Shown: one piece after another, positions 23,585 through 25,143 of the stretch | Layout: each line of letters opens with the position of its first letter | How positions within the stretch are numbered: the first letter of the stretch is position 1 | NCBI GenBank assembly: GCA_001515185.1 | Contig: LQHI01000062.1 | Coordinates: 1-36,183 of the forward strand | Direction: 5' to 3' | Length of the DNA: 36,183 nt | Source of the DNA: Hadesarchaea archaeon DG-33 | Lineage (GTDB): Archaea > Hadarchaeota > Hadarchaeia > Hadarchaeales > Hadarchaeaceae | The notes under the pieces: model-generated | Database searches by the model: none | Told to the model about the DNA's origin: nothing | What the model saw: the letters and a program-made list of their open reading frames with translations, nothing else | Translations under genes and position numbers: made by a program

Positions 23585-24202
23585 TCAGCGACTTCTTAGG
23601 AGTGGACGAAATATTTTCTGTAATAGCTTGCGCTCGCGAACCTTCTTGTATATGAGAAAGGCGAATGTCACGGCAATCAATATCAAATAAAGCACCAATG
23701 GACTGGGCAGGGCCCCCACAATTCCGGCAAATACAAAGGTCCAGAAAATGCTGGAAATCACCGCACCGACAGCGATGGATGCGAGGATCGTCTTCTTCTT
23801 TATGTTTAGTATGTAAGCACAGAGGGCCGCCCAAGAGACGCCAACCAAAAATGTGAATCCAACCACACCGAGAGCAAAACCGAACTGTCCCGTTCGGCGC
23901 TCAAATTTTCGTATGTAACCGTCAATGTCTACCCTGAATCTTTTAGATTTAGCCGCCGCGTACCCCATAACACGGGAGATAATACGATTTTTGTAACGCA
24001 TGCTATATCCAATAAATTCGAAAAACCCAAACCATACTGGCACGAGAGTCGCGTGGATGATACTAACAGCGATTGCGGTGTCAAAAGTCGACATTCCTTG
24101 GGCAAACGCGAACGGTATAGAGCCAAATGGGCCCAAGAGCAGAGTCAGCGCGACCAACCCGATAATAGACATAATCAACCCCTTATTGACTTCCTTAGGC
24201 AA
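23585..24202 (-). CDS. Integral membrane protein (4-5 TM); possibly small multidrug-export-like (COG2426), family uncertain
   Basis: Hydrophobic segments throughout. The likely true start is ATG 24172 (MSIIGLV), preceded by AAGGGG, rather than the TTG at 24202. Confidence 0.5.
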   Translation of the reverse strand: MPKEVNKGLIMSIIGLVALTLLLGPFGSIPFAFAQGMSTFDTAIAVSIIHATLVPVWFGFFEFIGYSMRYKNRIISRVMGYAAAKSKRFRVDIDGYIRKFERRTGQFGFALGVVGFTFLVGVSWAALCAYILNIKKKTILASIAVGAVISSIFWTFVFAGIVGALPSPLVLYLILIAVTFAFLIYKKVRERKLLQKIFRPLLRSR

Positions 24203-24215
24203 TCAAACCAGATAA

Positions 24216-24429
24216 GGTAGCGGGGAGTGGAAATTCCGAGAGAGGTTTTACGCCACTCTCTCTTGAACCACTGACCTCCGGGTCTCGCAGGAGCGCCAAA
24301 CTCACGGCTTGACGCCTTATGAGCTTCGCCCGTGGTTTTCCACGACCGGCGGGCACTCCATGCTGCCGTAGGGGCAGAGTAGTTTTCCTACTGCTGCTCT
24401 ACCCCGCTGCAGGTAGCTACCCCGCTACC
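24216..24429 (-). ncRNA. Unclassified highly structured RNA candidate (about 214 nt): either an independent ncRNA or a 5' leader of the downstream membrane-protein gene
   Basis: No ORF of 60 aa or more in any frame. GC-rich island in an AT-rich spacer. A perfect 10-bp terminal helix (24216-24225 with 24420-24429) encloses at least 5 hairpins. At three positions the pair is G.U on the minus strand but A.C on the plus strand. A TATA-like box sits about 26 nt upstream of the 5' end. Confidence 0.45.
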
Positions 24430-24451: not shown

Positions 24452-24459
24452 GATAAATG
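24452..24459 (-). promoter_or_regulatory. TATA-like box (CATTTATC on the minus strand) positioned for a transcript starting at about 24429
   Basis: Its centre is about 26 nt upstream of the first G of the terminal helix GGTAGCGGGG, the canonical archaeal TATA-to-TSS spacing. Confidence 0.4.
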
Positions 24460-24651: not shown

Positions 24652-25143
24652 CTACTGTTGGGGTCCTAGCTCAGCAGGTTTTAAGAATTTGCGCAGCAGG
24701 CCCCCCAGCACGGCGCCAACGCCGACAATGGCCACCAACATAAAAGCATAGAGAAACATGTCCCCATATAGCAGGAATAATACCTCTTCATGACTAGCCT
24801 GAGGAACTACGATATCAGAGACGCCTCGTGTGAAGAGGAGGAACATGTTCGCGAGGATAGGGCTGCAAATAATTAAAGTACCGTTCAACCCCCCAGCTCG
24901 AAATTGACTCCACCAGCCTCTGACCTCCCGAGCGAGCAAGTAGCCGGTAACCGCGCCACCTATAAAAAAGGTGAAGATCCCCCCTACAAAAAGTAAGCTG
25001 ACGCCCGCCCCGAATAAAAAGCCATAAAGTACGGGTCGTAGGTAAAGCCGTCGATCGAGTTTTCGGCCTAACAAGAATAACAAGACCCCTATGAGAACCA
25101 CTGCGACAACGCTATAGAGCAATCCAAATGTAAAGTCGTCCAT
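24652..25143 (-). CDS. Hypothetical integral membrane protein (about 5 TM)
   Basis: 163-aa ORF with Gly/Leu/Phe-rich hydrophobic helices. No family recognised. Confidence 0.5.
   Translation of the reverse strand: MDDFTFGLLYSVVAVVLIGVLLFLLGRKLDRRLYLRPVLYGFLFGAGVSLLFVGGIFTFFIGGAVTGYLLAREVRGWWSQFRAGGLNGTLIICSPILANMFLLFTRGVSDIVVPQASHEEVLFLLYGDMFLYAFMLVAIVGVGAVLGGLLRKFLKPAELGPQQ

Follow-up and report, generated by a model that had tools for sequence, protein, structure and literature searches.

The closest described counterparts of the gene reported here are the multi-intron transfer RNA (tRNA) genes of the Thermoproteales (Pyrobaculum, Thermofilum and Caldivirga). According to the parts of the literature drawn on here (Sugahara et al., 2007, 2008, via PMC4090602 and PMC8450103), their short introns form bulge-helix-bulge (BHB) motifs at canonical and non-canonical positions (D-arm, anticodon stem, T-loop), are removed by the endonuclease EndA and the ligase RtcB, and cause ordinary tRNA finders to miss the genes. 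Such introns can be spaced so closely that one must leave before the motif of the next can form, and the published maximum is three per gene (PMC8450103, 2021). In Asgard archaea, most tRNA genes are interrupted, many by D-arm insertions that annotators miss, with up to five intervening sequences per gene and repeated gains within families (Valentin-Alvarado et al., 2024, PMC11291895; 10.64898/2026.10.13.758758). For Hadesarchaea, the part of Kaneta et al. (2018, PMC5829648) used here states that alpha4-type EndAs accompany marked tRNA gene disruption, and it contains neither a gene-level description nor intron counts for the initiator tRNA. Here, we describe such a gene in a stretch of 36,183 nucleotides (nt) from Hadesarchaea archaeon DG-33 (assembly GCA_001515185.1, contig LQHI01000062.1, positions 1 to 36,183; hereafter the window). 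We are highly confident that the 214-nt element on its minus strand at 24216-24429 consists of a 21-nt leader and a single-copy archaeal initiator tRNA-Met(CAU) gene that four introns split into five exons.

Like the Thermoproteales genes, this locus carries short, closely spaced BHB introns at canonical and non-canonical sites, is missed by ordinary tRNA finders and would be processed by EndA and RtcB, with one intron leaving before the next motif forms. It differs from them in its host, a member of the Hadarchaeota, in its EndA, which comes from a single alpha-type gene without the Crenarchaea-specific loop and is not an (alpha-beta)2 enzyme, in its leader, which bears a duplicate of exon 1, and in its four introns, with five or six in relatives. 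This number exceeds the 'up to three' given for archaeal tRNA genes (PMC8450103) and falls within the 'up to five' of the Asgard preprint of 2026; compared with the Asgard work, ours concerns another phylum and one gene, and one Hadarchaeota genome (G015) has six introns, one above the preprint maximum. The combination of a single EndA gene and a fragmented tRNA gene agrees with Kaneta et al. (2018, PMC5829648), as far as the portion of that paper used here goes. Multi-intron archaeal tRNA genes are already known, and the element is a heavily fragmented case of a known kind of gene, neither a new RNA class nor a new kind of system; the duplicated-exon leader is the unusual feature. The boundaries of the parts, as drawn by sequence comparison with relatives, are as follows:

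24452-24457, minus strand: TATA box TTTATC, read from the sequence, with a predicted promoter function
24409-24429, minus strand: 5' leader GGUAGCGGGGUAGCUACCUGC, 21 nt, holding a 10/10 copy of exon 1 (AGCGGGGUAG)
24399-24408, minus strand: exon 1 (AGCGGGGUAG), 10 nt, tRNA positions 1-10, placed by spliced alignment to contiguous orthologues and by ARAGORN on the joined exons
24368-24398, minus strand: intron 1, 31 nt, site 10/11 in the D-stem, hairpin GCAG-C-AGUAG-GAAAA-CUACU-CUGC
24346-24367, minus strand: exon 2, 22 nt, positions 11-30, D-arm and 5' strand of the anticodon stem
24325-24345, minus strand: intron 2, 21 nt, site 30/31 in the anticodon stem, hairpin CGUGG-AAAA-CCACG
24318-24324, minus strand: exon 3 GCUCAUA, a 7-nt micro-exon with the CAU anticodon, positions 31-37
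24284-24317, minus strand: intron 3, 34 nt, canonical site 37/38, whose 3' part GGCGCUCC also pairs with GGAGUGCC of the D-arm exon
24262-24283, minus strand: exon 4, 22 nt, positions 38-59, 3' strand of the anticodon stem, variable loop, 5' strand of the T-stem and most of the T-loop
24232-24261, minus strand: intron 4, 30 nt, site 59/60 in the T-loop, hairpin GAGAG/CUCUC
24216-24231, minus strand: exon 5, 16 nt, positions 60-75, 3' strands of the T-stem and the acceptor stem, A73, C74 and C75

The last base of the gene is C75; A76 is not encoded and a T comes next.

The identity of the gene follows from its relatives and from the product of joining its exons. BLAST matched the element in 22 of 41 related genomes, so that the conservation proposed as a check in a preliminary description of this DNA is present, together with covariation in the intron hairpins. 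Several homologues contain GGGCTCATAACCC and finish with what is plainly a T-arm, an acceptor strand and CCA (..CCAGGTTCAAATCCTGGCCCCGCTACCA), which indicates an archaeal initiator tRNA-Met; the window holds the same exon pieces, but separated. When AGCGGGGTAG, GGCAGCATGGAGTGCCCGCCGG, GCTCATA, ACCCGGAGGTCAGTGGTTCAAG and TCCACTCCCCGCTACC (10, 22, 7, 22 and 16 nt) are joined, ARAGORN calls the resulting 77-nt sequence a tRNA-Met(CAU) with a perfect cloverleaf, in which the acceptor (7 base pairs, bp), D (4 bp), anticodon (5 bp) and T (5 bp) stems are all Watson-Crick paired and the anticodon loop and the T-loop (UUCAAGU) have 7 nt each. Archaeal and eukaryal initiators are marked by a CAU anticodon, an A1:U72 pair and three consecutive G:C pairs, 29-31:39-41, in the anticodon stem. 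All of these marks are found in the joined sequence (CAU, A1:U72 and G29-G31:C39-C41), which reads AGCGGGG...CCGGG-CUCAUAA-CCCGG...CCCCGCU-A. The elongator tRNA-Met of the same genome is a separate gene on contig C33, with G1:C72 and the anticodon stem CGAGA/UCUCG.

Moreover, uninterrupted orthologues exist. With the joined 78-mer as query against 66 Hadarchaeota genomes, contiguous genes matched over positions 1-78 at 92% (G035, G021, G039, G059), 90% (G030, G063) and 88% (G027), and a further one at 97% over positions 5-78 (G054, in which one intron lies further upstream); three contiguous orthologues score 61-63 bits on the Rfam tRNA model RF00005 (threshold 29). The unspliced locus itself gives no tRNA call by ARAGORN, with or without the intron option, and the window has no match to the standard Rfam family models at gathering score; a relaxed scan (E up to 10) returned a chance microRNA match only (E = 9). 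The preliminary description, which had asked for this Rfam comparison, was right in setting aside signal recognition particle RNA and RNase P RNA, neither of whose models matches the window, and wrong in setting aside a tRNA, the cloverleaf being masked by the four introns and the 21-nt leader. In this genome, as in a 94%-complete congener in three contigs (G002), initiator tRNA matches consist of the exon pieces at this locus only. As the sole detectable initiator tRNA gene, the interrupted gene must therefore be functional, and an annotation based on ARAGORN and Rfam would count it as missing or as a 'novel ncRNA'.

The predicted splice sites were examined under an assumed BHB geometry, which was checked on the intron of this genome's elongator tRNA-Met: an outer helix, a central helix of 4 bp, two bulges of 3 nt, each cleaved behind its second base, and an inner helix (h'). 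The introns at 30/31, 37/38 and 59/60, three out of four, fit this geometry, their bulges included. The motif at 30/31 is strict, with a central helix CGCC/GGCG (4/4 pairs), bulges GG|U and AA|G, and an h' of 5 bp that shows compensatory changes in relatives (UGUGG/CCACA, CGCGU/ACGCG). At 37/38, the central helix CUCA/UGCG has 3/4 pairs, the bulges are UA|A and AG|A, and the outer helix is the 5-bp anticodon stem that would form once intron 2 has been removed; in relatives, the four bases 5' of the 3' bulge are always UGNG, which gives 4/4 pairs if N is A. The 59/60 motif has the 5-bp T-stem as its outer helix, a central helix UUCA/GGAA (3/4, and 4/4 in the six relatives L009, L010, L011, L020, L041 and L049), bulges AG|A and UU|U and a covarying 5-bp h'. 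Among the seven T-loop positions possible, it scores highest in every relative, and removal there leaves the mature T-loop UUCAAGU of the intronless relatives. The motif at 10/11 is the weakest of the four and relaxed in kind, with a central helix GGGU/CCCU (3/4), an h' of 4 bp and no outer helix. As a null model, each intron was shifted to all other positions in the gene, of which none of 58 scored as well for 59/60, one of 58 for 37/38 and four of 58 for 30/31. On motif evidence, three introns are thus well supported and the D-stem intron poorly, and the predicted boundaries of the latter rest on comparison with relatives. In addition, the 30/31 motif takes in the exon bases C25-C28 and so competes with the D-stem and the anticodon stem, which suggests that intron 2 probably leaves before the 37/38 motif gains its outer helix.

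The comparison with relatives also provides a record of intron turnover. Spliced alignment of the initiator tRNA gene in 56 Hadarchaeota genomes (loci L001-L076) yielded 0, 1, 2, 3, 4, 5 and 6 introns in 10, 13, 3, 8, 14, 7 and 1 genomes, respectively, at eight recurrent sites (4/5, 10/11, 13-15, 20a/21, 30/31, 37/38, 45/46 and 59/60). The largest gene, with six introns, measures 257 nt (L019 of G015), and ARAGORN recognizes a tRNA-Met in every in silico spliced product from the relatives with four, five or six introns. For each of the four sites used in the window, there is an orthologue that lacks the intron precisely at the predicted junction, in some cases within the same genus; intron 1, for example, is precisely missing in G045 (genus g8) and in every gene with a single exon-1 copy. 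Intron sets are mosaic inside genera (1-4 introns in g8, 1-5 in g11 and 1-4 in g2), which suggests rapid gain and loss, or recombination. A short-word BLAST search of the whole assembly found no other copies of the four introns or of the leader. One essential single-copy gene with 0-6 introns at eight sites within one phylum offers compact material on the gain and loss of BHB introns, and it bears on the handling of non-canonical sites by a single alpha-type EndA that lacks the Crenarchaea-specific loop. The acceptor-stem intron at 4/5, found at L012, L038, L039, L011, L019 and L066-L068, has a 4/4 central BHB helix that is formed by leader G-2 and U-1 together with A1 and G2 against intron CUAY, so that there the leader sequence belongs to a splice motif; this intron also holds a degenerate exon-1-like stretch, GUAGCGAGC.

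The anatomy of the gene is ambiguous at its 5' end. Within this genus, the first and the second copy of AGCGGGGTAG are identical, and sequence alone cannot choose between them. The same gene could begin with the first AGCGGGGUAG copy (24417-24426), with a leader of only GGU and a 10/11 intron of 49 nt (24368-24416) that includes the second copy. The mature tRNA would be the same, and the spliced aligner picked the first copy for L001-L003 and L005; this copy also keeps the ancestral spacing to the TATA box that genes with one exon-1 copy show, and of the two it pairs better with the 3' end (10 bp). The other genomes with a duplicated exon 1 speak against such an arrangement. There, the first copy reads AGCGGGGAAG or AAA, AGCGAGGACG, AGTGGGG, AGCGAGG or AGCGGGA, with positions 8-10 free; it mostly lacks U8-A9-G10 (AAG, AAA or ACG instead) or is mismatched to the acceptor 3' strand, and hence cannot be the exon there. 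The second copy is invariant in all of these genomes and directly abuts the intron hairpin, and a start at the first copy would move that hairpin off the 5' bulge (h' of 0, against 4). From a drifting first copy and an invariant second one, we take the second as exon 1 and the first as leader, and consider the 5' end at the first copy unlikely.

With exon 1 placed at the second copy, several regularities of the leader can be noted. Its GGU and exon-1 copy form a 10-bp pairing with the 3' end of the gene (CCCCGCUACC). In almost every intron-bearing gene, leader positions -3 to -1 form pairs with 73-75, usually as GGT:ACC, with compensatory changes to GAT:ATC in G042 and G046 and to AGT:ACT in G064, and such pairing is found in only one of eight distinct intronless genes. 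The duplicated exon-1 leader is present in all 22 genes with a 10/11 intron, and G045 has kept it with the 10/11 intron absent; positions -3 to 7 of the leader are conserved, and positions 8-10 and the spacer drift. One tentative and rather doubtful explanation is that the exon-1 duplicate and the GGU:ACC pairs act as a selected 'clamp' that holds the acceptor 3' strand in a 10-bp helix of the precursor. Such a clamp would leave the real exon 1 (G4-G7) free for the BHB motif of the 10/11 intron and would defer end-processing by RNase P until splicing is done; if it exists, the tRNA body could not fold before all four introns have left, and all eight sites would be served by an alpha4-type EndA that has none of the known specificity loops. 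Shared ancestry could account for all of these hints. Two further candidates at the leader were rejected. An 18-nt intron between the exon-1 copies fails on BHB geometry worked out by hand, since a direct repeat would need a palindromic 4-mer and there is none. For removal of the leader by EndA at a BHB or bulge-helix-loop motif, the sole candidate is a GGGU/ACCU hairpin that has no outer helix and is unsupported.

Upstream of the leader, the TATA box lies 22 nt from the first G of the element, and the same CATTTATCC box is found 20-22 nt upstream of GGT-AGCG in the relatives L004, L005, L011, L019, L038, L052 and L066-L068. The earlier proposal of an RNA gene on the minus strand with its own predicted TATA-type promoter (TTTATC, 24452-24457) was right. 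From this box, transcription is expected to begin at the first G of the leader (24429) or close to it. Along the pathway that we envisage, transcription would begin about 25 nt downstream of the TATA box and would give a precursor with leader, five exons and four introns, in which each intron-exon pair would fold into a BHB motif. EndA would cut at these motifs and RtcB would join the exons, RNase P would take off the leader, and the 3' end would be trimmed before addition of A76. The analysis establishes which gene this is, its exon and intron boundaries by comparison with relatives, the geometry of the motifs and the presence of the enzymes; the transcription start, the splicing itself, the order of these steps and the role of the leader are inferred.

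The splicing enzymes are present in the genome. EndA is encoded by one alpha-type gene of about 180 amino acids (aa) that adjoins the tryptophanyl-tRNA synthetase gene trpS (contig C35:16607-17146, L026). It matches PF01974 with 113 bits, has an intact Y/H/K catalytic triad, and finds its best PDB relatives in M. kandleri EndA and the M. jannaschii alpha4 enzyme; in alignments, it has neither the insert of the A. pernix alpha subunit (L1, the Crenarchaea-specific loop) nor an ARMAN-2-type insert (L2). The longest open reading frame (ORF) at this gene has 246 aa, with an N-terminal extension that is probably not translated. No second subunit or paralogue was found by PF01974 (E up to 1) in 25 genomes or by protein search (E up to 10) in eight genomes, near-complete ones among them. 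In addition, the genome encodes the RtcB ligase (PF01139, 600 bits), and RNase P RNA (RF00373, 166 bits) lies on contig C36.

Several observations weigh against a gene that is spliced in this way. The 10/11 motif is weak: it lacks an outer helix, pairs at 3/4 central positions, and is equalled in score by 16 of 58 alternative positions. A 2026 preprint cautions that chance alone yields relaxed BHB classes at many boundaries (10.64898/2026.10.13.758758). EndA, seemingly the product of a single alpha-type gene, is without the Crenarchaea-specific loop, which the part of PMC5829648 used here links to the cleavage of relaxed motifs. Exon 1 is ambiguous in the window itself, where choice of the first AGCGGGGUAG copy would give a leader of 3 nt and an intron of 49 nt. 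Finally, no joined-exon contigs were found in four metatranscriptomes and two runs of unrecorded type, all searched as assembled contigs, which capture mature tRNAs poorly. The only transcriptome signal, an unspliced contig of 147 nt from a close relative in a groundwater metatranscriptome (run X24), covers 24280-24428, from the leader through exon 4, with 6 differences and 2 gaps relative to the window, and starts one base from the predicted transcription start; it may represent precursor tRNA or contaminating DNA.

The rejection of the locus by standard tRNA finders, together with splicing not having been seen in RNA data, would also suit a decaying tRNA pseudogene in which the insertions are inactivating junk. 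We regard this as highly improbable, given that the locus is the sole initiator tRNA gene detectable here and in the near-complete genomes G002 (94%), G008 (90%), G020 (95%) and G023 (94%), that its exons are invariant or changed only in ways that keep the stems, as in the covarying T-stems, that the insertions sit at boundaries able to form BHB motifs and have covarying hairpins, and that the promoter is conserved.

Close to negligible, and already refuted by the decomposition into exons and introns, is the proposal of the preliminary description that the element is a novel stable non-coding RNA (ncRNA) or a riboswitch-like cis-regulatory leader of the membrane-protein gene 45 nt downstream on the same strand: a strong, shuffle-resistant fold, the lack of an Rfam family at gathering score and a TATA box of its own are what such an RNA would show, but the sequence splits exactly into the five exons of a canonical initiator tRNA that resembles the uninterrupted genes of relatives, near-invariance across the phylum is limited to the exons, with the 'structural' parts present in some congeners and missing from others, synteny among relatives extends to the upstream ORF and not to the variable downstream flank, and the downstream gene, a PF06695 small-exporter homologue, is unlinked to the element.

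The fold on which that proposal was built is largely real. The minimum free energy (MFE) of the minus-strand RNA is -108.5 kcal/mol, compared with -77.4 +/- 4.6 in 200 dinucleotide shuffles, none of which is as stable (z = -6.74); the plus strand is almost as stable (z = -6.36), so that the strand is not chosen by energy alone. Most of the helices listed previously recur: the perfectly complementary 10-bp closing helix of GGTAGCGGGG (24216-24225, plus strand) with CCCCGCTACC (24420-24429) is confirmed and belongs to the MFE structure, as do the GAGAGAG/CUCUCUC and CGUGG-AAAA-CCACG hairpins, the GCUCA/UGAGU stem with its GGC-GUCAA-GCC cap and the 8-bp helix GGAGUGCC/GGCGCUCC. The GACC/GGUC hairpin exists in the sequence and is absent from the MFE structure, in which part of the long irregular hairpin is also exchanged for an alternative pairing. 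The description of the element as free of ORFs holds apart from trivial ones of 45-53 aa that overlap it. Read as parts of a precursor, these helices are mostly precursor-specific, comprising the intron hairpins (h'), an intron/D-arm helix and a leader/3'-end helix. The closing helix is the leader (GGU and the 10/10 exon-1 copy) paired with the acceptor 3' strand and A73-C75 (CCCCGCUACC). Intron 1 and its flanking bases account for the long irregular hairpin, introns 2 and 4 contribute their h' as CGUGG/CCACG and GAGAGAG/CUCUCUC, respectively, and pairing between intron 3 and the anticodon loop produces GCUCA/UGAGU with the GGC cap. In the 8-bp helix, the D-arm exon is paired with the 3' part of intron 3; this helix is maintained through one-sided changes in L016 and L070.

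The downstream gene (23585-24172, minus strand) belongs only weakly to PF06695, the putative small multidrug export proteins, scoring 31 bits where the cut-off is 30.7. The differing downstream flank and the syntenic upstream ORF in relatives indicate that the element is not coupled to this gene. Beyond the initiator gene, ARAGORN with its intron option lists only 26 tRNA genes in this 68%-complete genome, more than half of them intron-bearing, and some calls are evidently spurious, such as a tRNA-Asn with a 647-nt intron and a 'tRNA-Pyl' with a 791-nt intron; further multi-intron tRNA genes have probably been missed. On the other side of the element, the upstream ORF (24652-25143, minus strand, 163 aa, no Pfam match) is syntenic with the tRNA gene throughout the family. 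Many relatives have the 3' end of this ORF directly against the tRNA leader, leaving no TATA box in between; in the window, the ORF and the tRNA gene are separated by about 220 nt that include the TATA box.

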